From the NCBI RefSeq assembly GCF_041929145.1, contig NZ_JBHFNU010000005.1:1-20867 (forward strand): a stretch of 20,867 bases of DNA. Reading direction: 5' to 3'. This DNA comes from Aerosakkonema sp. BLCC-F183. GTDB lineage: Bacteria > Cyanobacteriota > Cyanobacteriia > Cyanobacteriales > Aerosakkonemataceae. The stretch's first letter is position 1. Every line of letters starts with the position of its first letter. The notes beneath the pieces are model-generated. The model saw only the letters and a list, made by a program, of their open reading frames with translations, searched no databases and had not been told where the DNA came from. Shown here one piece after another: positions 1,399 to 18,940 of the stretch. The translations under genes and the position numbers were made by a program.

Positions 1399-1638
1399 AT
1401 GTTAGGTTTCGATCGAATTACATTCAATCCGCGCATCATGGCAGGGCAAGCTTGTATTCGAGGAATGCGAGTTCCGGTTTCATTGATTTTGAATTTGGTG
1501 GCGAATGGAAAAACTGTAGCAGAGATTATAGAAGATTATCCATACTTGGAACCGGAAGATATTCAGCAATCATTGATGTATGCGGCATGGTTAGCCCGCG
1601 AGCAGGTTTTTCCCACAGTCTATGAGAAAGTAGGATGA
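1399..1638 (+). CDS. DUF433-family small protein, putative antitoxin partner
   Basis: The 79-aa product ...RIMAGQACIRGMRVPVSLILNLVANGKTVAEIIEDYPYLEPEDIQ matches the conserved DUF433 core. It overlaps the next gene by 4 nt (ATGA). Confidence 0.7.
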   Translation: MLGFDRITFNPRIMAGQACIRGMRVPVSLILNLVANGKTVAEIIEDYPYLEPEDIQQSLMYAAWLAREQVFPTVYEKVG

Positions 1639-1997
1639 AATTTTTAGCGGATATGGGTATATCACCGCGCACAGTCAATTGGCTAAGATCTGTTGGCTAC
1701 GATGCACTACATTTAGTTGACGAAGGTTTGGCAGAATTACCCGATGATGAAATTCTGACAAAGGCTCGTGCTGAAGGACGGATACTCCTAACGGTAGATT
1801 TAGATTTTGGTTATCTGTTAGCGGTCAGTGGGGAACAATTGCCGAGTGTAATTCTGTTTCGGCTGGGTAATGAGAGTTATGAAATAATTAATGAACGTTT
1901 GGCACAGGTGCTGAATAGATTTGAGGAGGATTTGGCAGCAGGAGCAATTATTTCTGTTAAGGATGAAGCTTTCCGGGTGAGGCGATTGCCAATATAA
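1635..1997 (+). CDS. DUF5615-family (PIN-like/Mut7-C-like) protein, putative toxin partner of DUF433
   Basis: The 120-aa product MKFLADMGISPRTVNWLRSVGYDALHL...ILLTVDLDFG fits the DUF5615 pattern. It is translationally coupled to the upstream DUF433 gene. Confidence 0.7.
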   Translation: MKFLADMGISPRTVNWLRSVGYDALHLVDEGLAELPDDEILTKARAEGRILLTVDLDFGYLLAVSGEQLPSVILFRLGNESYEIINERLAQVLNRFEEDLAAGAIISVKDEAFRVRRLPI

Positions 1998-2035: not shown

Positions 2036-2175
2036 GTGGGGGAGCGGGAGAGCGGGGGAGTGGGGGAGCGGAAGAATTAATATTTTCCCTTTTCCCTCTT
2101 CCTTTTCCCTCTCCCTAACCCCTCTTCCCTAACCCCTCTTCCCTAACCCCTCTTCCCTAACCCCTAACCCCTAAC
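2036..2175. repeat. G-run block followed by a C-run heptamer tandem array, (CCCTAAC/CCCTCTT)n ending in (CCCCTAA)3, between convergent genes
   Basis: gggggagcgggagagcgggggagtgggggagcgg lies at about 2037-2064. It is followed by ttttccctcttccttttccctctccc, then three copies of the 14-mer CCCTAACCCCTCTT, then (CCCCTAA)x3 up to 2172. The two halves are partly complementary. This is STRR-like heptamer periodicity. Confidence 0.8.
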
Positions 2176-2177
2176 CC

Positions 2178-3668
2178 CTATTTCAAAACCCAATTCACGA
2201 GAGTGCGAACACCGTAACCGGTAGCACCAACGTTGTTGTAGCCGTTTTCCTTGTCTGTCCAAACTGGGCCGGCAATGTCCAAGTGTACCCAAGGGGTTTC
2301 TTTGACAAATTGCTTGAGGAACAAGGCAGCGGTGATGGAACCGCCGGGACGGGGGCCGGTATTTTTCATATCGGCAATTTGGGATTTTAAACCATCAAAG
2401 TATTTCTCTTCCAGAGGCATCCGCCATAGCTTTTCGCCAGCAAGTTCGGCAGATTCAATAATCTCGTTGGCGACGGTATCGTTCGGACTCCACAAACCGG
2501 CAATATCATCGCCTAAAGCGATGACGCACGCACCGGTGAGTGTGGCTAAGTCGATCATGGCATCAACGCCGAGTTTTTCGGCAAACACCAAAGCATCTGC
2601 CAGAGTCAGGCGTCCTTCCGCATCGGTGTTGTTGACTTCGATCGTCTTGCCGTTAGAAGCTTTCAGAACATCGCCTGGGTGCATGGCGCGACCGCCGATC
2701 ATATTCTCGGTAGCTGCGGTGATAAAATGAACTTCCACATCGGGTTTGAGTTGGGCGATCGCTTTTGCCGCACCCAAAGTTGCAGCTGCACCACCCATGT
2801 CTATTTTCATCATCTCGATACCGCTACCGGCAACTTTGATATTCAAACCGCCAGAGTCGAAGGTCAAACCTTTACCGATAATTGCCAATTTGCGGCGCGG
2901 TGTTCCCTCCGGTTTGTAAGTTAAGTGAATAAACTTAGGCGGTAAGTCGGAAGCTTTGGCAACACCCAAAAACGCACCCATCCCCAGCTTTTCGCAATCT
3001 TCTTGTTCCAAGATTTCTGCCGCCAAGCCGAATTCTTGTGCTAGCGCTTCCGCTGTTTGGGCCATTGTCACTGGAGTTACCTCGTTGGCTGGTGCGGCCA
3101 CCAGTTCCCGCGCTAGGATAACACCGGCGCAGATTTGCTTGGCGCGGTTAATTGCGTCTTCTTGACCCTCGAAACCGAGTAAATCGATTTGTTCGAGTTG
3201 CGGCCCTTTGTCTTCCGATTCTGACTTAAAGCGGTTATCTTGGTGCAGGGCCAGTTCTATACCTTCAACGATCGCCCCAGTTGTAGTTGGGGCATCATTA
3301 TTCCACACTGGTAAGCTCAGGCCCAAGGTTTTGCATTTTTCCTTTTTAGCTAACCGAGCTGCTGCTGCTGCCGATCGGCGCAAAGAATTTAACTTCTGCG
3401 TTTCGGCCTTGCCCAGTCCCACCAGTATAATTTTACGGACTGGACTGCCGCTACCGCCAACGCGAGTCGAAGCGCTGCTGCCTTCTTTGCCCTTAAATTC
3501 GGTTTCTGCAATCAAATCTTGCAAAGTACCGCCGAACTTCTCGTTTAACTGCGCTAAATCGCCAGTTAACTCGACGGCATCTTCAAAAAAGCCAATTGCC
3601 AATCCATCCCCCGACCAATCTAAGCGCGGGGTATTTATTGCGCGAAATTCCATTCCCCGTTTCACCAA
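2178..3668 (-). CDS. pepA: Leucyl aminopeptidase (M17 family, cytosol aminopeptidase)
   Basis: The 496-aa product carries the M17 signature [14 protein letters not shown] and the DMGGAAA and KGLTFDSGG motifs. The true start may be the internal Met of MEFRAIN. Confidence 0.9.
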
Positions 3669-6320: not shown

Positions 6321-6355
6321 AGTCAAAAGTCAAAAGTCAAAAGTCAAAAGTCAAA
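6321..6355. repeat. (AGTCAAA)5 perfect heptamer tandem repeat, STRR-like
   Basis: agtcaaa repeats five times with no mismatch, directly downstream of the slt stop. Confidence 0.9.
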
Positions 6356-6390
6356 CATTCAAATTTCCTCCCTCTCCCTCTTCCCTTTTC

Positions 6391-6428
6391 CCGGACGCCC
6401 GACGCCCGACGCCCGACGCCCGACGCCC
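6391..6428. repeat. (CCCGACG)5 heptamer tandem repeat preceded by a CT-rich cctctccctcttcccttttccc tract
   Basis: ccggacg is followed by four copies of cccgacg and then ccc. The CT-rich tract at 6366-6392 shares the TCCCTCTCCC motif with the repeat block at 2077-2110. Confidence 0.9.
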
Positions 6429-8046: not shown

Positions 8047-9819
8047 TCACAAGATATCCTCTGCAAACTTTCCGAGATTTTCCTGTCTCCACTTAGCATC
8101 TGCCTTCCGATTTGTTCTCAATTCTAATACCCGAATTCCTTGTTCTGGCAGAGGATTCAATCTTTGTTTCAGTTGCTGCCAAGAAGCGATCGCTTCATAT
8201 TCGACATTGTAGGTAGCACAAAGCTGAGCGAAATCTATATCCTGGGGTGTGGCAAAAAATTCTTCAAATGGCGGCTCAAATTTGGCAATTGGCAACATTT
8301 CAAATATACCACCACCATTGTTATTAATCAAGATAATAGTGAGATGTCCGAGAAATTTATTTCTCAATAAAAAGCCGTTGGTATCGTGCAACAAAGCTAA
8401 ATCTCCAGTCAGCATGACGCTGCTTTGATGGCGATGGGCAATGCCTAAAGCGGTGGATAAAGTGCCGTCGATGCCATTAGCGCCCCGGTTGAAAAAGGGT
8501 TGAATTCCAGAATTGTTCGGTGTCCAGAAAAATTCCACATCTCGCACGGGCATACTGTTGGCAATAAATATAGGCGTTGCTGGTGGTAAAGACTGGGAAA
8601 GTAACCAAGCAACTTTACATTCAAATAAGGTTTCTGTTGTTGCCATTGTGCGGTCAATGCGTTGCCTGACAGTGGCTTCGGCATCGCACCAAATTTGCAG
8701 ATATTTACTGAGATTATTTGGTTCGATCGCACATATTTGCGCTAGCTGTTCTACGGATAATCGCAGATGAGTTGTGTTGCCGTGTAGCGGATCTAAATTG
8801 TGATGGCTGGTGTCAATTACCCATGTGAGCGGTTGGGTTGATTCTAACCAAGTTCGCAGTTCTTTACTGGTGGGTAAGTCTCCTATCTGGATGGCGATTT
8901 CCGGTTTAAGTTGTTGTGCTATTTGTTGGTTTCTTAATATCGAATCGTAGGTGGAAATTAAGTAAGGATTTAGTTCGGCATAATTTCGCAATGGCGATAA
9001 TCCCTCTGCTAATACAGGCCATTTTAAGGTTTGGGAAAGTTGGGCAATTGCCTGACAATATTGTTTGGGAAAGTGAGGTTGTGACGTGCCGGCGATGATG
9101 ATTCCATGCTCGCATTGCGACCAGTTTTGTAACGTATTGAGTAAAGAATTATTGTTGGCTATTGACAACTGACAACTGACAACTGACGACTGACAACTAG
9201 CAAAGAAATGTTCTGGCTGAAATTGCGATCGCAACTCCTCGGTAGCCGCTTGGGGTATGGGGGCGAGAGGGTCGCGAAAGGGGATGTTAAGATGGATTGG
9301 GCCGGGAACGGGAAAGAGCGATCGCTCCCACCCATGAATAATTGTTTGCCGCAGATAATTCAGCATTCCTATTTCTAATGATGGCACTGCTAACTCGGCT
9401 TGCCAGTTCGGATAAGTGCCATATAATTTGATTTGGTCGATAGTTTGTCCGGAATGACAATCTCGCAATTCTGGGGGGCGATCGGCTGTGAAAACTAACA
9501 GCGGTACGCGACTTTCTCTGGCTTCAATAATAGCAGGATAAAAGTTTGCGCCCGCAGTTCCGGAAGTGCAAACTAATGCTACTGGCAAACCTGATTTTTT
9601 GGCAATTCCCAAAGCAAAAAAAGCAGCCGATCGCTCGTCCAAAACGGGAATTGCTTCTATTTTATCTTGTTGGGCAAAAGCAACTGCCAAAGCAGTAGAA
9701 CGCGACCCCGGACAGATAACTGCTGTAGTTAGTCCGAGTCGTTTTAAGGTTTCCGTAAGTATGGAAGCCCAGACAGAATTAGTGTTGCGAAAATCTATGG
9801 GCATTGGGGATTGGGTCAT
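8047..9819 (-). CDS. menD: 2-succinyl-5-enolpyruvyl-6-hydroxy-3-cyclohexene-1-carboxylate (SEPHCHC) synthase, MenD, ThDP-dependent
   Basis: The 590-aa product has the N-terminus ...SVWASILTETLKRLGLTTAVICPGSRSTALAVAFA typical of MenD. ThDP-fold motifs GDLALLHD and NNNGGGIF are present. It abuts menF with start and stop adjacent at 9819/9820. Confidence 0.9.
   Translation of the reverse strand: MTQSPMPIDFRNTNSVWASILTETLKRLGLTTAVICPGSRSTALAVAFAQQDKIEAIPVLDERSAAFFALGIAKKSGLPVALVCTSGTAGANFYPAIIEARESRVPLLVFTADRPPELRDCHSGQTIDQIKLYGTYPNWQAELAVPSLEIGMLNYLRQTIIHGWERSLFPVPGPIHLNIPFRDPLAPIPQAATEELRSQFQPEHFFASCQSSVVSCQLSIANNNSLLNTLQNWSQCEHGIIIAGTSQPHFPKQYCQAIAQLSQTLKWPVLAEGLSPLRNYAELNPYLISTYDSILRNQQIAQQLKPEIAIQIGDLPTSKELRTWLESTQPLTWVIDTSHHNLDPLHGNTTHLRLSVEQLAQICAIEPNNLSKYLQIWCDAEATVRQRIDRTMATTETLFECKVAWLLSQSLPPATPIFIANSMPVRDVEFFWTPNNSGIQPFFNRGANGIDGTLSTALGIAHRHQSSVMLTGDLALLHDTNGFLLRNKFLGHLTIILINNNGGGIFEMLPIAKFEPPFEEFFATPQDIDFAQLCATYNVEYEAIASWQQLKQRLNPLPEQGIRVLELRTNRKADAKWRQENLGKFAEDIL
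9163..9197. repeat. (TGACAAC)5 heptamer tandem repeat lying inside the menD coding sequence
   Basis: tgacaac tgacaac tgacaac tgacgac tgacaac is read on the minus strand as the low-complexity peptide ASCQSSVVSCQLS within MenD. Confidence 0.85.
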
Positions 9820-11247
9820 TCACACTAAAGCTTTGAGAAGTGCTTGAAGTTTCAGTTGAATTTCTGCAAGTTCTTTGTCTGGATCTGAGCCAGCAACGAT
9901 ACCGGCACCTGCGTACAGTCTAGCGCGATCGCTATCTATCAGTGCTGAACGAATGCCTACGACAAACTCGCTGTTACCGCGATGATCTATCCAACCTAAT
10001 GGTGCCGCATAAACAGAGCGATCGAATGCTTCATAGCGGCGAATTTGGCTCAGCGCGATATCTCTAGGATCGCCTGCAACAGCAGGGGTGGGATGGAGTT
10101 CTGCCAAAATTTGTAATGGCTGCACACCGCCAGCGATTTTACCTCGAATTGGTGTCCATAAATGTTGTATATTTGATAGCTGTAAAAGACCGGGAATAGG
10201 AAGTCGCTGGTGTGACAAACCGAGGTTGGATAAGCGCTCGACAATGAAATCAATTACAACTCGATGTTCCCGCCTTTCCTTTTCGCTCCTGAGCAAACGT
10301 TCAGCAAAATAGGCATCTTCGGCTGCTGTTTTGCCTCGCGGTGCTGACCCCGCCAAAGCATCGGTTTCTAATTCTCGCTCTTGTATCCTAATTAAGCGCT
10401 CTGGACTGGCACCGATAAAATCTTTACCTTTGCCGTTACTGGTAGAAAAAACATAGCAATCGGGATACATTCTTCGCAAATTATTTAAGGAATCAACCCG
10501 ACGAAAAGGGCGCGGCGAATTAACCTCAATTGCGTGAGCTAAGACAATTTTGCTAAAATGTTTAGACCGAATCGATTGCAATGCCGATACGACTGAGGCT
10601 TGAAAATTTCTGCGATCGGTTACATCTTGCGGTTGAAATTTCTGTTTATAATCGCTCAAATGAAAATTTCTGTAGTTCGCGAATCTAATTTGGTGGAGTT
10701 TCTGCCATATATTCTCTGCTATAACTTCGATGTTTGCATTGCTGTCGATTACAGTATTAGCCACTATAACACAGTAATCTTTTTGACAGGAAACCTGCCA
10801 GCGAGGTAAAAAAACTGTGGCGGCGGGGAAAGGAGAATCACCATTGATATTCTCATCAAAAAATGTGAAAGTACAGAAAAAGTGAGGCCCAGAAAAAGGC
10901 AGGTCTAACGCGCCTGTGGCAATTGTGTTAGCAAGGCATGAATCGATAAATTTTTGTGCTTGCGAAAAGCGATCGACTCCTTCTAACTTAAATTTAGCGG
11001 CTGTATCGATCGCCGCGATCGCTTCCCCTTGATTGGCTTTTTCCCAATAAAAATGCAGTTTTTCCGGCTCGGCAATGCGATCGAGTACAGCTAGCGGATC
11101 GAGCGGTTTACTTGGCAGGGAAATACTGACAACTTTTTGCAGCCCTTTTTCAATTAACGTTTGTTTGCAAGCTAAAAGAAACTGATGCAGTTCCTTGCGA
11201 TCTTCAAACAGATTAGGATGATGTGTCACTGGCACGGAAGCGAACAT
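9820..11247 (-). CDS. menF: Isochorismate synthase MenF (chorismate-binding enzyme family)
   Basis: The 475-aa product has a chorismate-utilising C-terminus with PTPAVAG and YAGAGIVAGSDPDKELAEI motifs. It lies immediately upstream of and co-oriented with menD. Confidence 0.85.
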   Translation of the reverse strand: MFASVPVTHHPNLFEDRKELHQFLLACKQTLIEKGLQKVVSISLPSKPLDPLAVLDRIAEPEKLHFYWEKANQGEAIAAIDTAAKFKLEGVDRFSQAQKFIDSCLANTIATGALDLPFSGPHFFCTFTFFDENINGDSPFPAATVFLPRWQVSCQKDYCVIVANTVIDSNANIEVIAENIWQKLHQIRFANYRNFHLSDYKQKFQPQDVTDRRNFQASVVSALQSIRSKHFSKIVLAHAIEVNSPRPFRRVDSLNNLRRMYPDCYVFSTSNGKGKDFIGASPERLIRIQERELETDALAGSAPRGKTAAEDAYFAERLLRSEKERREHRVVIDFIVERLSNLGLSHQRLPIPGLLQLSNIQHLWTPIRGKIAGGVQPLQILAELHPTPAVAGDPRDIALSQIRRYEAFDRSVYAAPLGWIDHRGNSEFVVGIRSALIDSDRARLYAGAGIVAGSDPDKELAEIQLKLQALLKALV

Positions 11248-11400: not shown

Positions 11401-11433
11401 AGAAACCCGGTGTTTTAGAAAAACCGGGTTTCT
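11401..11433. promoter_or_regulatory. 33-bp near-perfect palindrome AGAAACCCGGTgTTTTagAAAAaCCGGGTTTCT in the divergent menF/menA intergenic region
   Basis: The 11-bp arms AGAAACCCGGT and ACCGGGTTTCT are exact reverse complements. The central gttttagaaaa is itself nearly palindromic. No U-tract follows on either strand, so it does not look like a terminator. Confidence 0.45.
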
Positions 11434-11506: not shown

Positions 11507-11655
11507 TCAAAAGGTTTGAAATCCCTGCTTGGTGGTAGCGACACTGGCAACGTCCCCAGCAAAGATTGTGGCCTGCGTTATCCAGATTGAGTTTACCATT
11601 GCGACCTCAGCATCATAAAATTATGAGATTCGGAAAATTCAATCGATACCGTCCG

Positions 11656-12561
11656 ATGACTACACAATCTATTGCTCATTCAAACAGTAAGTTGTGGTTG
11701 GCAGCACTTAAACCACCGATGTACAGCGTTGCCGTGATTCCAATTTGGGTGGGAACTGCTGTTGCTTGCGCGGAAAATAACACTTTTAATGGCGCAATCT
11801 TTTCGACATTTTTAATTTCAGCGATTTTGATTGTTGCGTGGCTGAATCTCAGCAACGATGTGTTCGATTCGGAAACTGGAATTGATAAAAACAAAGCGCA
11901 TTCGCTCGTTAATTTAACAGGAAATAAACCCTTAATTTTCTGGTTGGCGAATTTGTTTTTAGCTGTGGGTATTCTGGGAGTAGTGGCGATCGCATGGTGG
12001 CAACAAGACCTCACTGTAATCGGTCTGATACTGCTCTGCTGTGCTATGGGCTACACTTACCAAGGGCCGCCCTTTCGGTTGGGATATCAGGGTTTGGGGG
12101 AAATTATTTGCTTTTTTACCTTTGGGCCATTGGGCGGATCGGCGGCGTACTACAGCCAAACCCAAAGCTGGTCGATCGCCAATATAGCAGCTTCTGCGAT
12201 CGTCGGCATCGTCACCAGCTTGATTTTGTTTTGCTCCCATTTTCATCAACTTGAAGACGACCTAGCGGCAGGGAAGAAATCGCCCATTGTCCGACTCGGC
12301 ACTGCCAAAGCATCCCAGCTATTACCTTGGTTTGGCGGCAGCATTTACCCTTTGACTGTGCTGTTCGTCGCATTGCACATTTTTCCAGTTTGGACATTGC
12401 TAATCTTTGTCAGTTTACCCCTCGCCCTCAAGTTATTCCGACACGTTGGCGAAAATCACGATCGACCGGAAAAAGTCAGCAATTGTAAATTTATCGCCGT
12501 AGCCCTGCATTTTTGGAGTGGCTTACTGTTAGGATTGGGATTCGTACTTGCCAACATTTGA
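11656..12561 (+). CDS. menA: 1,4-dihydroxy-2-naphthoate phytyltransferase MenA (UbiA prenyltransferase family)
   Basis: The product is a polytopic membrane protein with the MenA-type first motif NDVFDSETGID (NDxxDxxxGxD) and a second Asp-rich motif near EDDLAAGKKS. It is followed by menC and menE. The ORF is open from 11566 and ATG 11623 is also possible. ATG 11656 (MTTQS...) gives a length typical of MenA. The stop TGA at 12559-12561 overlaps the menC ATG. Confidence 0.8.
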   Translation: MTTQSIAHSNSKLWLAALKPPMYSVAVIPIWVGTAVACAENNTFNGAIFSTFLISAILIVAWLNLSNDVFDSETGIDKNKAHSLVNLTGNKPLIFWLANLFLAVGILGVVAIAWWQQDLTVIGLILLCCAMGYTYQGPPFRLGYQGLGEIICFFTFGPLGGSAAYYSQTQSWSIANIAASAIVGIVTSLILFCSHFHQLEDDLAAGKKSPIVRLGTAKASQLLPWFGGSIYPLTVLFVALHIFPVWTLLIFVSLPLALKLFRHVGENHDRPEKVSNCKFIAVALHFWSGLLLGLGFVLANI

Positions 12562-13553
12562 TGTTTTATCAGTTTGAATTTCGTCCTTATCAGCGACAGT
12601 TTAAACGCGCCCTCTCCACCAGTCACGGCAACTGGGATATTCGAGAGGGCATTATCCTGCGCCTCACCGACGATAAAGGTGTAATTGCTTGGGGAGAAAT
12701 TGCCCCTATTCCCTGGTTTGGTTCCGAAACATTGCCATCAGCTATAAATTTTTGTAGTCAATTGGGAGATGAAATAACAACAGAAACAATTTTCTCTATT
12801 CCATCTGAATTACCATCATGTCAATTTGGTTTTGAATCTGCTTGGGAAACATCTCTTGTGAGGCAGGCATCGACGCTGCCACTAAGACCGGACAGGCAAG
12901 ATGCCTATCCCACAAGAAAGTATTCTTACAGTTGCTTATTACCAGCAGGCGAAGCCGCTTTACATCAATGGCAAACACTTTGGCAGCAAGGATATCGTAC
13001 TTTCAAATGGAAAATTAATGTTACTCCCATTGAAGATGAAATCAAAATTTTTGCCAAGCTAATTCAGGCACTACCGAGGTCGGCAAAACTGCGATTAGAT
13101 GCTAATGCTGGACTGAATTGGTCAGAAGCAAATGAATGGCTGAAAATGTGCGAGAATTACTCTGCGATCGAATTCCTCGAACAACCCCTACCCGTCGAGC
13201 AATTTCATGCCATGCTAGATTTAGCTAACCGCTATTCTACCCCAATAGCATTAGATGAATCCGTTGCCACCCTTAACCAACTGCAAACCTGTTACGAAGA
13301 AGGTTGGCGAAGTATTTTTGTCATCAAACCCGGCATCGTTGGTTCCCCCAGACTTCTGCGTCAATTTTGTCAGCAACATGACATCGATGTCGTCTTTTCA
13401 TCGGTTTTTGAAACAGCCATTGGCAGACAAGCTGCACTTAACCTCGCAGCTGAACTTTCTCATCATAATCGAGCAGTTGGTTTTGGCGTCAATCACTGGT
13501 TTAATGAAGATGAGGAAACGTGGCTTGAAAATTTATGGAACAACCCCCATTAG
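12561..13553 (+). CDS. menC: o-Succinylbenzoate synthase MenC (enolase superfamily)
   Basis: The product has the KxK motif FKWKI, metal-ligand motifs RLDANAG, EFLEQP and ALDES, and an N-terminus MFYQFEFRPYQRQFKRALSTSHG...GEIAPIPWFGSET typical of cyanobacterial OSBS. The start ATG 12561 overlaps the menA stop as TGATG. Confidence 0.85.
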   Translation: MFYQFEFRPYQRQFKRALSTSHGNWDIREGIILRLTDDKGVIAWGEIAPIPWFGSETLPSAINFCSQLGDEITTETIFSIPSELPSCQFGFESAWETSLVRQASTLPLRPDRQDAYPTRKYSYSCLLPAGEAALHQWQTLWQQGYRTFKWKINVTPIEDEIKIFAKLIQALPRSAKLRLDANAGLNWSEANEWLKMCENYSAIEFLEQPLPVEQFHAMLDLANRYSTPIALDESVATLNQLQTCYEEGWRSIFVIKPGIVGSPRLLRQFCQQHDIDVVFSSVFETAIGRQAALNLAAELSHHNRAVGFGVNHWFNEDEETWLENLWNNPH

Positions 13554-14950
13554 ATCTTGTGGGGCTGGTGTCTCACCTGCCCAATAATTGGTTAATTGGT
13601 TACAACACCCATCAATTTACTCAGCTTGTCGAACAACTATATTTAGAATTAATCCAAATATCCAAACAGCAAAACTCACCAAAAATTATCTTAGCCGAAC
13701 GAAATCCAGTGCGCTTTTTAGCCGGTTTCATCGCTGCAACAGCCGCCGGTTGCCCCGTATTTCTCTGCAATCCCGATTGGGTAAAAGCTGAATGGCAACA
13801 AGTTTTTGAATTAGTTCAACCAGACATAATTTGGGGAAATTTGTCAGTCGTCAGTTGCCAGTTGTTCGCTGCAAAGAAAGAGGAAAAAAAAGCTGATTAC
13901 AGACAGATTATGATTCCCACGGGTGGTTCGTCGGGTGAAATTCGCTTTGCCATCCACACTTGGGAAACATTGACAGCATCGGTGCAAGGTTTTATCGAAT
14001 ATTTCGATATAAAGACAGTCAATTCCTTTTGCGTCTTGCCGCTTTATCATGTCAGCGGTTTGATGCAATTTGTGCGCTCATTCCTCACTGGTGGAAAACT
14101 GGCAATTCTACCTTTTAAAGCACTAGAAGCTGGTGAAAAATGCGAAGTCGAACCAGCAGATTTTTTCATATCTTTAGTGCCAACTCAACTGCAACGTCTG
14201 TTAGATCGTACTCCACAATGGTTGTCTCAGTTTCAAACAATTCTGTTAGGAGGTGCTACAGCTTGGCACGAACTTCTAGAACAAGCGAGACAGCATGAAA
14301 TTCGGTTAGCACTCACTTACGGGATGACAGAAACTGCCTCGCAAATTGTCACCCTCAAACCAGAAGATTTTCTCAAGGGGAATAATAGCTGCGGACAAGT
14401 TTTACCTCATGCAAAGGTAAAAATTTGCAATCCAAATGGGAAGATGTTAGGTGCGAATCAAACGGGAATTATCACCATCAATGCAGATTCATTAGCGCTA
14501 GGTTATTATCCTGATACTTCATTTGTTAGAGAAAAGCAGGTAATTTTACAAGCGGATGATTTGGGATTTTTTGACGAACAAGGTTACTTAAACATTGTCG
14601 GACGTAACAGCAATAAAATCATCACTGGCGGCGAAAATGTTTTTCCATCGGAAGTGGAAGCGGCGATTCGATCGACTAATCTAGTTAGCGATATCTGCGT
14701 CATTGGCATACCCGATTCCCATTGGGGTCAAGCGGTGACGGCTGTGTACGTTCCCAGCCATCCAGAAGTTGACACCGAGACGCTGCAAACCGCACTTTTA
14801 GATAAATTAAGTAACTTCAAGCGCCCCAAATATTGGATACCTGTAGAAAGTTTGCCGCGTAACGCGCAGGGTAAAATTAATCGCGAACAAATACAACAAA
14901 TAGCTATTTCGTGGCATCCAGATCGCTCCAATCTTGCAGCCAGTCAATAA
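13535..14950 (+). CDS. menE: o-Succinylbenzoate-CoA ligase MenE (adenylate-forming enzyme)
   Basis: The 471-aa product has AMP-binding motifs [15 protein letters not shown] and [11 protein letters not shown] and a conserved Lys near the C-terminus. It overlaps the menC 3' end by 19 nt. Confidence 0.85.
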
Positions 14951-18506: not shown

Positions 18507-18940
18507 GAGCTACAAAAGTCAATCATTCAAAAGTCACCGACTTGTGGGTTGAGTTAAAAATATTACCGCCGCACGAGCATTCGTTAAAAAGTCAAAAGTC
18601 TCAAATGCTTTGAGCATCAGGGAAGCGAAAACGAACTACTGAAACTAACAAGTTGGGTTCGCCTGGGGTAAGGCCGCACCTACATTGCCAGCTATCGCCC
18701 CTAATTTATAATATTTTAAGATGGCCTCAACTGGGGGATTTGCCTAATATTTTAAAGCAATTAGGGATACTCGCGGTATATCTCTGAGAATGTGTTTCAA
18801 AATTTAAGCTACTTTAAACACTAGAAGAATAGACATCTCCTCCAAAAGAATCTCAAAGGGCAGGCAGGATGGCTACCCCACAAGAATTTTTGGAGATGTT
18901 TAATGGAAAATAGTCAGTTTTTACTCAAGCTACGTAAATT

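Follow-up and report, generated by a model that had tools for sequence, protein, structure and literature searches.

The DUF5615-pepA spacer and its repeat tract

In the cyanobacterium Aerosakkonema sp. BLCC-F183, the spacer between two convergent genes, one encoding a DUF5615 protein and the other the leucyl aminopeptidase PepA, is filled by a compound tandem repeat in which G-rich units are followed by C-rich ones. We analysed this tract (positions 2033-2180) within a stretch of 20,867 nt (contig NZ_JBHFNU010000005.1, positions 1 to 20,867 of the forward strand), called the window below, whose 16 HIP1 sites are consistent with a cyanobacterium. The genes and features relevant to the tract are listed here by position and strand.

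1399-1638, + strand: DUF433 gene (Pfam PF04255, E=1e-23), preceding the DUF5615 gene; also called in the source assembly
1635-1997, + strand: DUF5615 gene, PIN-like, toxin-type (Pfam PF18480, E=2e-26), stop codon 1995-1997; also called in the source assembly
1998-2032, no strand: non-repetitive part of the spacer, 35 nt, partly alignable with Aerosakkonema funiforme, which has UAUUUUUGUU here
2033-2075, + strand: G-rich, purine-rich 8-mer array of about five units GGGGGAGY/GGGAGAGC (TRF period 8)
2076-2082, no strand: AT-rich centre AATTAAT, 7 nt, within a predicted hairpin loop that extends beyond it on both sides in the minimum free energy structures
2083-2112, - strand: C/T tract before the 14-mers (TRF periods 7 and 13), reading GGGAAAA/GGGAAGA on the - strand
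2113-2154, - strand: (CCCTAACCCCTCTT)x3 = (CCCTAAC·CCCTCTT)x3, three perfect copies of a 14-nt higher-order unit (direct repeat family D4, 100% identity)
2155-2179, - strand: (CCCTAAC)x3 + CCCT, in pepA sense (GGGGTTA)n beginning inside the stop codon; a predicted RNA G-quadruplex
2178-3653, - strand: pepA, M17 leucyl aminopeptidase of 491 amino acids (Pfam PF00883, E=1e-122, and PF02789)
6321-6428, - strand (G-rich strand): second compound array, in the SLT-TatC spacer (TRF; G-quadruplex motif at 6370-6428)

Transcription of the DUF5615 gene leads into the tract, and pepA converges on it from the other side of the 180-bp spacer; the pepA stop codon TAG (CTA on the + strand, 2178-2180) lies inside the last repeat unit. 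The 491-amino-acid PepA corresponds exactly to a protein record named Aerosakkonema leucyl aminopeptidase and has the same length in the source assembly, and no exact protein match was found for a version with a TTG start. An earlier note on this DNA had described a block of repeats and G-runs between the two convergent genes, in agreement with the sequence, TRF and the gene calls. The block was placed at 2036-2175, somewhat short of the actual tract of 2033-2180 that includes the pepA stop codon, and its description, correct as far as it went, left out the AT centre (2076-2082) and a 34-nt pyrimidine tract (2083-2116).

NCBI contig JBHFNO010000043.1 (GCA_041929185.1) is identical to the window at 271 of 271 aligned bases (1960-2230), which cover the spacer and its flanks. 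Short-read contigs of the Logan collection, from two runs, enter the tract from either side and end inside it, at 2083 and at 2151/2153; A. funiforme Logan contigs likewise end inside the tract of that species. Both edges are thus independently reproduced; for the copy number of the interior (2084-2150) a single assembly is the source. A break on the pepA side is expected, since with k=31 the stretch of perfect 14-nt periodicity exceeds k+14. G-rich arrays of this type are systematic break points of short-read assemblies.

The tract had also been called telomere-like, and its units do resemble eukaryotic telomere repeats (TTAGGG and TTGGGG types), with which they share short G-runs, T/A loops and the same G-quadruplex (G4) chemistry. 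The resemblance and the breaking of short-read assemblies inside the tract could be taken for signs of a telomere relic, a linear replicon end or an assembly artefact. This reading is effectively refuted and the telomere identity is rejected: the tract has only about 13 units, it is internal to a 111-kb contig and not at a replicon end, and the chromosomal genes on either side of it have a conserved order in Aerosakkonema and Argonema (the gene order around the tract is kept in at least five genomes). Furthermore, both edges are present in the independent Logan assemblies, an orthologue exists in two A. funiforme-type assemblies, and the breaks are explained by a perfect 14-nt periodicity beyond k-mer resolution.

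Anatomy of the tract

On the forward strand, G-rich 8-mers are followed by the AT centre, the C/T tract, the 14-mer array and finally the heptamer array. The 8-mer array, the left (5') arm on this strand, contains four G3-5 runs and reads GGGGGAG CGGGAGAG CGGGGGAG TGGGGGAG at 2038-2067. Beyond the AT centre, an uninterrupted pyrimidine run of 34 nt (2083-2116) consists of degenerate CCCTTTT/CCCTCTT units, and the 8-mer array is the pairing partner of the C/T tract (inverted-repeat pairs I3 and I5). The left part of the tract is about 89% purine and the right part about 88% pyrimidine. TRF reports period 8 at 2033-2075, period 7 at 2113-2180 and period 14 at 2107-2179, the last with a score of 118 and 93% matches.

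Read in the sense of pepA, the tract begins with TAG, (GGGGTTA)3 and (GGGAAGA GGGGTTA)3, continues with GGGAGA GGGAAAA GGAAGA GGGAAAA GGGAAAA and TATTAATT, and ends with CTTCCG and (CTCCCCCA/G-type)x4; the 14-mers at 2113-2154 appear in this sense as (AAGAGGG GTTAGGG)x3. After the hairpin described below, positions 1998-2032 form a moderately U-rich stretch (AAUCUAUUCUUGUU) on the same strand. The heptamer CCCTAAC occurs six times in the window, all six within the tract, where 1.65 occurrences are expected in the window and none of 100 shuffles reached six. The tract is non-random and not a chance feature. The exact 21-mer of the 14-nt alternation was found in four records of a metagenome collection; since the alternation is so rare elsewhere, the higher-order unit is best understood as a local duplication.

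Predicted quadruplexes and hairpin

Three canonical G4 motifs occur in the window, two of them in the DUF5615-pepA spacer and the third at 6370-6428. Those of the spacer lie on opposite strands, one at 2038-2066 on the + strand (four G-runs) and the other, of 11 runs, at 2107-2178 on the - strand, with G4Hunter peaks of +2.2 at 2030-2080 and -2.32 at 2098-2187, respectively. The earlier note's view of a strong G4 candidate is borne out on both strands by these scores and by a predicted RNA G4. It had counted at least 10 consecutive minus-strand G-runs set 2-4 nt apart; the count holds, but the spacers are of 3-4 nt.

Folding of the RNA of 1995-2185 predicts a long hairpin with imperfect pairing and the AT stretch at its centre, with -58.0 kcal/mol for the + strand and -67.2 kcal/mol for the - strand. 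The stem, of about 40 nt, is imperfect and degenerate in register, the loop is about 20 nt long, and the arms are 71-79% complementary in several alternative registers 14 nt apart. The partly complementary halves and the long imperfect hairpin that had been proposed from the letters are therefore recovered by folding. The fold energy of the 150-nt core is among the lowest 1.5-3% of all 150-nt segments of the window. G4-aware folding (ViennaRNA gquad) of the pepA-sense RNA gives -76.0 kcal/mol vs -67.2 kcal/mol without G4, a gain of 8.8 kcal/mol, and predicts that the G-runs nearest to the stop codon build a four-layer G4 while the remainder stays a hairpin; for the DUF5615-sense RNA only the hairpin is predicted. 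On the pepA side the G arm (about 96 nt) far exceeds the C arm (about 40 nt) in length, hence the G4 and the hairpin need not compete there. A consensus scan of the spacer found no promoter, and Rfam gave no match across the whole window.

The orthologous tract in Aerosakkonema funiforme

The orthologous spacer of A. funiforme FACHB-1375 starts, in pepA sense, with TAA, GAGA and (GGGGCTA GGGGTTA GGGCGTC GGGGCTA), continues with (GGGAAGA)2, GGAGGAC and a centre of (TTTTGAC)4, and ends with the C-rich octamers (CCCCACTC)3 followed by TATTTTTGTT. Here the hairpin is directly followed by the U-tract UAUUUUUGUU. In unit sequence, unit number and centre the window differs from A. funiforme; both species have the same layout, with G-heptamers beside pepA, an A/T-rich centre and C-rich octamers beside the other gene. 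Identity between the window and A. funiforme is as follows.

pepA coding sequence: 96.7%
DUF5615 gene, last 120 nt: 97.5%
non-coding pepA-SLT spacer, 470 nt: 98.3%
array: 56% (145 vs 108 nt, 37 gap columns)

By this comparison the array is a hypervariable island within near-identical DNA, as a slippage-prone tandem repeat predicts. The array is identical in two separate A. funiforme-type assemblies (L246 and L247; L numbers denote the sequences compared with the window), which show no copy-number polymorphism between them.

These data bear directly on the main rival of the functional reading developed below, namely that the tract is a neutral, self-propagating product of slippage, tolerated where it disturbs no promoter, and that its hairpin and G4 potential is a by-product of composition. 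An array that is hypervariable within 97-98% identical DNA, the swapping of unit types (including a different central heptamer array) between sister species, and the rarity elsewhere of the exact 14-mer composite, as predicted by local duplication, are all in line with such an origin, which we regard as a serious possibility although not the one we favour. The G-then-C layout, kept in both Aerosakkonema species despite the turnover of units, is less readily accommodated by it.

The pepA 3' end in other relatives

Argonema PepA is 91% identical at the amino acid level, and no such array directly follows pepA in this genus. Instead, pepA is followed in Argonema antarcticum by the hairpin ACUAAGGGAAAG...CUUUCCCUUAGU (z -4.8), and in Argonema galeatum by the hairpin GGGGCGAAGCA...UGCUUCGCCCC (z -8.8) and then by the A. 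antarcticum-type hairpin. A relative with 84% pepA identity has yet another post-pepA hairpin, GAAACCCGGUUUC...GAAACCGGGUUUC (z -5.6). The hairpins of the two Argonema species and of the 84% relative are mutually different and start 0-11 nt after the pepA stop codon, which suggests that a structure following the stop codon is conserved in position and not in sequence. Unrelated hairpins at one and the same position count against neutral slippage. The earlier note had named, as a refuting condition, unrelated sequence at the syntenic position of a different lineage, and the outcome is mixed: the condition does not apply to the sister species, where the layout is the same and the units differ, but it does apply to Argonema with its unrelated hairpins. 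Elsewhere in the neighbourhood, Argonema carries related CCCTCTT + (CCCTAGC)5 and (CCCCTAA)n arrays on the other strand.

The length of the PepA C-terminus shifts with the position of the stop codon relative to the array (window 2178-2195; L123 6470-6490; L246 4470-4490). A. antarcticum PepA has 495 amino acids and ends in EEKG, the extension being equivalent to the post-stop sequence TAA GAG AGG GGC TAG of A. funiforme.

Related arrays at other spacers

The proposal that the tract belongs to a dispersed repeat family, with a related array at 6321-6428, is supported, and further members exist in A. funiforme, Argonema and Floridaenema. The array at 6321-6428 is composed of (AGTCAAA)5, a CT-rich tract (6367-6392) and (GACGCCC)5; the SLT-TatC spacer of A. 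funiforme differs from that of the window in both the types and the numbers of units. (GGGGGAGY)n is present in this spacer in A. funiforme (L246 189-221) and A. antarcticum (L123 2076-2099), whereas the window has a contracted version of it (6367-6392); the same octamer family is also represented in the A. funiforme orthologue of the DUF5615-pepA tract. At the SLT-TatC spacer the octamer array therefore appears to have been kept across genera and then lost in one lineage, a persistence that counts against slippage without function. Another spacer of A. funiforme contains the (GGGGGAGC)n-GGAAGAA-AT motif of the window. Judging by these cases, array types persist long and also turn up at different spacers.

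In Floridaenema, a composite of the form G-rich...GGAG TTTTT (CCCTAAC)3-4 CCCC...(CCCCAGT)n recurs at three loci with near-identical junctions, CTCGGAGTTTTT(CCCTAAC)3-4 followed by (CCCCAGT)n, the canonical STRR1 unit. These composites fill spacers between convergent or co-directional open reading frames (L140 5416-5499; L141 2807-2901 and 6308-6473; L142 3800-3885). Metagenome-assembled genomes of uncultured gammaproteobacteria carry MITE-like elements (MITE: miniature inverted-repeat transposable element), in which (GGGGWTA)3-5 GTCGGA, a variable centre of 40-90 nt and TCCGAC (TWACCCC)3-5 follow one another; clearly related copies occupy different loci (L145 7480-7620, L166 6674-6813, L178 4950-5082, L216 6081-6211).

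The tract itself might accordingly be a MITE-like mobile element, spread by a transposase or by recombination, with its G- and C-rich arrays as terminal inverted repeats. The recurrent junctions in Floridaenema, the motif shared with another A. funiforme spacer, the clear (GGGGWTA)n GTCGGA...TCCGAC (TWACCCC)n elements of the gammaproteobacteria and a TnpB/IS605 OrfB gene about 1.7 kb from the tract would fit such an element. We nevertheless consider it improbable: the tract has a positional orthologue in two species that differ by gain and loss of units and not by presence or absence, no target-site duplication, defined ends or empty site was seen at the locus, the arms are only 71-79% complementary, and Rehm et al. 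(2015; PMC4692102) found no association of the G-rich heptamer class with mobile elements.

Distribution and polarity of (CCCTAAC)n arrays

A scan for CCCTAACCCCTMWYCCCTAAC, with one genome per species, returned at least 117 stretches; it is not a census, the source genome of the window is not among the matches listed, and all results of this section refer to the matches listed. (CCCTAAC)n arrays of three or more units were found in cyanobacteria, Planctomycetota, Acidobacteriota, Bacteroidota, Chloroflexota and gammaproteobacterial metagenome-assembled genomes; most have 3-6 units and lie inside contigs. Such arrays are common in many phyla and are not special to the genome of the window. The 14-mer alternation was in none of the matches listed. 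The more general pattern (CCCTNNN)x4+CCCT gave very many matches even in viral contigs and is uninformative on distribution.

The arrays show a marked polarity. Among 104 arrays with enough flanking sequence, a G-rich block (G4Hunter of at least 1.5) within 120 nt of the C-rich array lay on its 5' side in 25 cases and on its 3' side in 3. Orientation relative to genes was also biased: near stop codons, G was on the sense strand in 36 arrays and C in 19, and near start codons, G was on the sense strand in 7 and C in 30, so that 66 of 92 arrays follow an orientation rule relative to gene ends; these counts are based on crude calls of open reading frames, contain copies related to one another and, for some pairs, both partners, and represent a trend and no clean statistic. 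The G-then-C polarity and the orientation at gene ends reproduce the pattern described by Rehm et al. for GGGAATC and GGGGA(C/T)T repeats. Both biases count against the neutral origin considered above, the second being unpredicted by slippage alone.

Comparison with known repeats

By its units and arrangement, the tract is a compound short tandem repeat of the class that comprises the cyanobacterial STRRs and the G-rich heptamers. The class has already been described in Nostoc and Xanthomonas; what the present locus adds is the comparison of orthologues, with extreme variability and a preserved layout, and the G-first polarity across phyla. Rehm et al. (2015; PMC4692102) described G-rich, quadruplex-forming heptamers, GGGGA(C/T)T in Nostoc PCC 7120 and GGGAATC in Xanthomonas. 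In their data, G-repeats lie on the coding strand at a distance to the stop codon of at most 50 bp or overlap it, X. campestris, with 186 repeat patterns, has convergent pairs in 70 cases while few are reported for Nostoc, and the repeats vary extensively between close relatives. Among known systems these repeats come closest to the tract, which resembles them in several respects. Its heptamers combine a G3-4 run with a loop of 3-4 nt, and there are at least four consecutive runs (11 on the - strand and 4 on the + strand); it is intergenic and belongs to a dispersed family; its sense-strand G begins inside the pepA stop codon; a G-block on the + strand (2033-2075) and G-heptamers on the - strand (2083-2179) form a convergent pair that could adopt a stem-loop or G4; and its length and sequence vary widely between close relatives at the same gene pair. 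It differs in that its units (GGGGTTA, GGGAAGA and GGGGGAGY) do not conform to the published consensus GGGGA(C/T)T or GGGAATC, in the 8-mer opposite arm and the 14-nt higher-order unit, and in its host, a non-heterocystous Aerosakkonema. The G4 of the tract is a predicted one (G4Hunter and ViennaRNA); its close analogues (GGGGATT)3GGGG and (GGGGACT)4 form quadruplexes with T1/2 >95 C in K+ (Rehm et al.).

The comparison with STRRs made in the earlier note is apt. Like STRRs (e.g., the hupS-hupL hairpin and STRR1, CCCCAGT), the tract consists of 7-bp tandem units, is intergenic, is capable of forming a hairpin and occurs in a filamentous cyanobacterium. TRF periods of 7 and 14 agree with a heptamer repeat, while the left arm with its period of 8 is no more than STRR-like; a second compound array lies at 6321-6428, and related arrays occupy other spacers in relatives. 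In contrast to STRRs, which were defined in heterocystous strains, the tract includes no canonical unit; a link is provided by Floridaenema, in which CCCTAAC arrays directly abut CCCCAGT arrays. STRR hairpins have been suggested in the literature to act as transcript stabilisers or terminators.

The tract also shares with the intrastrand triplex motifs TMECO and BoxC (Holder et al. 2015; PMC4666352), of which some cyanobacteria have large numbers, a G/C-rich, strand-skewed and intergenic character and candidate non-B DNA. Its identity with these motifs is rejected: the pattern CCCTCNCCC N3-6 GGGNGAGGG N3 GGGNGAGGG has 0 matches in the window, and its block order (C-G-G) is opposite to that of the tract. 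A role at the level of DNA could still be imagined, in which a G4, an i-motif or a triplex (H-DNA) stalls replication or promotes recombination and the spacer is a hot spot for gain and loss of gene cassettes. The purine/pyrimidine skew and the 34-nt run of pure pyrimidine would suit such a structure, the gene slot between pepA and a pentapeptide-repeat gene is variable across relatives, and non-B motifs are tied in the literature to bacterial genome instability. However, Rehm et al. found genomic stability to be increased, not decreased, around G-rich heptamers; the TMECO triplex pattern is absent and its C-then-G order reversed; the cassettes also vary in Argonema, which has no array at the site; and there is no direct evidence for rearrangement break points at the array. 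We give this role little credence.

A proposed role at the 3' ends of both transcripts

We propose that the tract provides both converging mRNAs with a 3'-end structure that pauses or terminates the polymerase, blocks 3' exonucleases, or both, and we put the probability of this reading at roughly 50%. In either transcript that enters the spacer the G-runs would be made first and the matching C-runs afterwards. The pepA mRNA would form a (GGGGUUA)n quadruplex right after the stop codon and then the long imperfect hairpin, and the DUF5615 mRNA would have the hairpin at its 3' end, so that a single element could be active in both directions in an organism without Rho. Replication slippage, probably together with exchange with other arrays of the family, would remodel the tract faster than the surrounding DNA. 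We suggest that this slippage is tolerated because the arms can pair in many registers.

We favour a 3'-end role because (i) a hairpin is kept after pepA in several lineages despite sequence turnover; (ii) the layout is retained in A. funiforme despite unit turnover; (iii) G4 repeats of Xanthomonas are sites where transcripts begin or end more often (Rehm et al. 2015; PMC4692102); and (iv) cyanobacteria have no Rho, and in Synechococcus only a minority of transcript ends, 22% of the transcription units, is explained by canonical intrinsic terminators (2025 Rend-seq study). A GC-rich stem-loop situated just after a stop codon in a convergent spacer, and usable both ways, is also what a bidirectional intrinsic terminator looks like.

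A number of observations weigh against this proposal. The bidirectional terminator suggested in the earlier note is not of the canonical intrinsic kind, although it would act like one. The consensus scan of the spacer found no intrinsic terminator, and the GC-rich stem-loop is not directly followed by a proper U-tract in the window, unlike that of A. funiforme with its U-run: in the DUF5615 direction C-rich repeats come after the stem instead, and in the pepA direction an interrupted, weakly U-rich stretch (GCCAAUCUAUUCUUGUU) starts about 4 nt past the stem. Compared with dinucleotide shuffles of itself, the hairpin has no extra stability (z -0.6 and +0.7), and the array hairpin of A. funiforme is likewise no more stable than its own shuffles. 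The stability is due to composition, a G-skewed block beside a C-skewed block, and not to a tuned register; fold energy alone does not separate a selected hairpin from two juxtaposed skewed arrays. Since a 3' structure of some sort can be expected for any gene, the positional conservation after pepA is weak evidence for the tract. In the relative with 81% pepA identity (L245) there is no synteny and no obvious post-pepA structure, and in Antarctic Argonema-like contigs the fold after pepA is weak (z -0.5). Most non-canonical 3' ends in Synechococcus are without strong structure (2025 Rend-seq study), and Rehm et al. were unable to assign a function to the G-rich heptamer class. The lack of an assigned function for the class and the folds no better than shuffles also speak for a neutral slippage product. 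On balance the tract is real but fairly ordinary, and it probably marks the ends of both transcripts.

A wider and doubtful, albeit conceivable, generalisation is that compound G-then-C arrays form a class of their own, distinct and widespread, whose members act as 3'-end elements in both directions, tolerate slippage and do without a U-tract. In such a class, a quadruplex of the nascent RNA or of the non-template strand, followed by a register-degenerate hairpin, would stall or stop the polymerase and protect the 3' end; some of the many transcript ends that are unexplained in Rho-less cyanobacteria could be due to it, and it would be recognisable across phyla by a strict G-first polarity relative to spacer geometry. 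The question of what cyanobacterial heptamer repeats do dates from their first description. The locus offers a natural experiment, with flanks of 97-98% identity, differently built arrays, the same G-then-C layout and convergent genes. If transcript 3' ends fell at such arrays, the whole repeat class would gain a role; otherwise, the tract would be a textbook case of a microsatellite that is hypervariable and prone to form structures, and at which short-read assemblies break as well.

Neighbouring genes and other repeats of the window

At its left edge the window includes the 3' end of an IS605 OrfB/TnpB (Cas12f-like) gene (62-334; L001 1-862), which adjoins the pentapeptide-repeat gene. The slot between the latter and pepA holds an intact DUF433-DUF5615 pair in the window (1399-1997), a deletion-fused DUF433-DUF5615 remnant of 106 amino acids in A. 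funiforme, of which the last 40 amino acids are identical (L246 4612-4932), DUF5996 fragments in Argonema and nothing in the Antarctic contigs (L123 6758-7121; L249 4740-4868).

A hairpin element of about 29 nt, GGRCAGGCARGATGSCTAYCCCACAAGAA, is present at 12890-12918 and 18858-18886 and, inverted, at 13555-13582, and Antarctic Argonema-like metagenome contigs carry a related copy about 45 nt beyond the stop codon of pepA (L250, about 3025-3055). Between the divergent genes menF (9820-11247, - strand) and menA (11566-12561, + strand) there is a near-perfect palindrome, AGAAACCCGGTGTTT / AAAAACCGGGTTTCT, at 11401-11433, a hairpin of the same type as the structure after the pepA stop codon in relative L244. 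A (GTTGTCA)n heptamer array lies in frame and on the sense strand in two phylloquinone genes (9163-9198 and 13841-13865), where it encodes amino acids 208-219 of menD (SCQSSVVSCQLS) and amino acids 103-111 of menE (LSVVSCQL), giving a nearly identical peptide insert in both; on the + strand one array is 96% reverse-complementary to the other.

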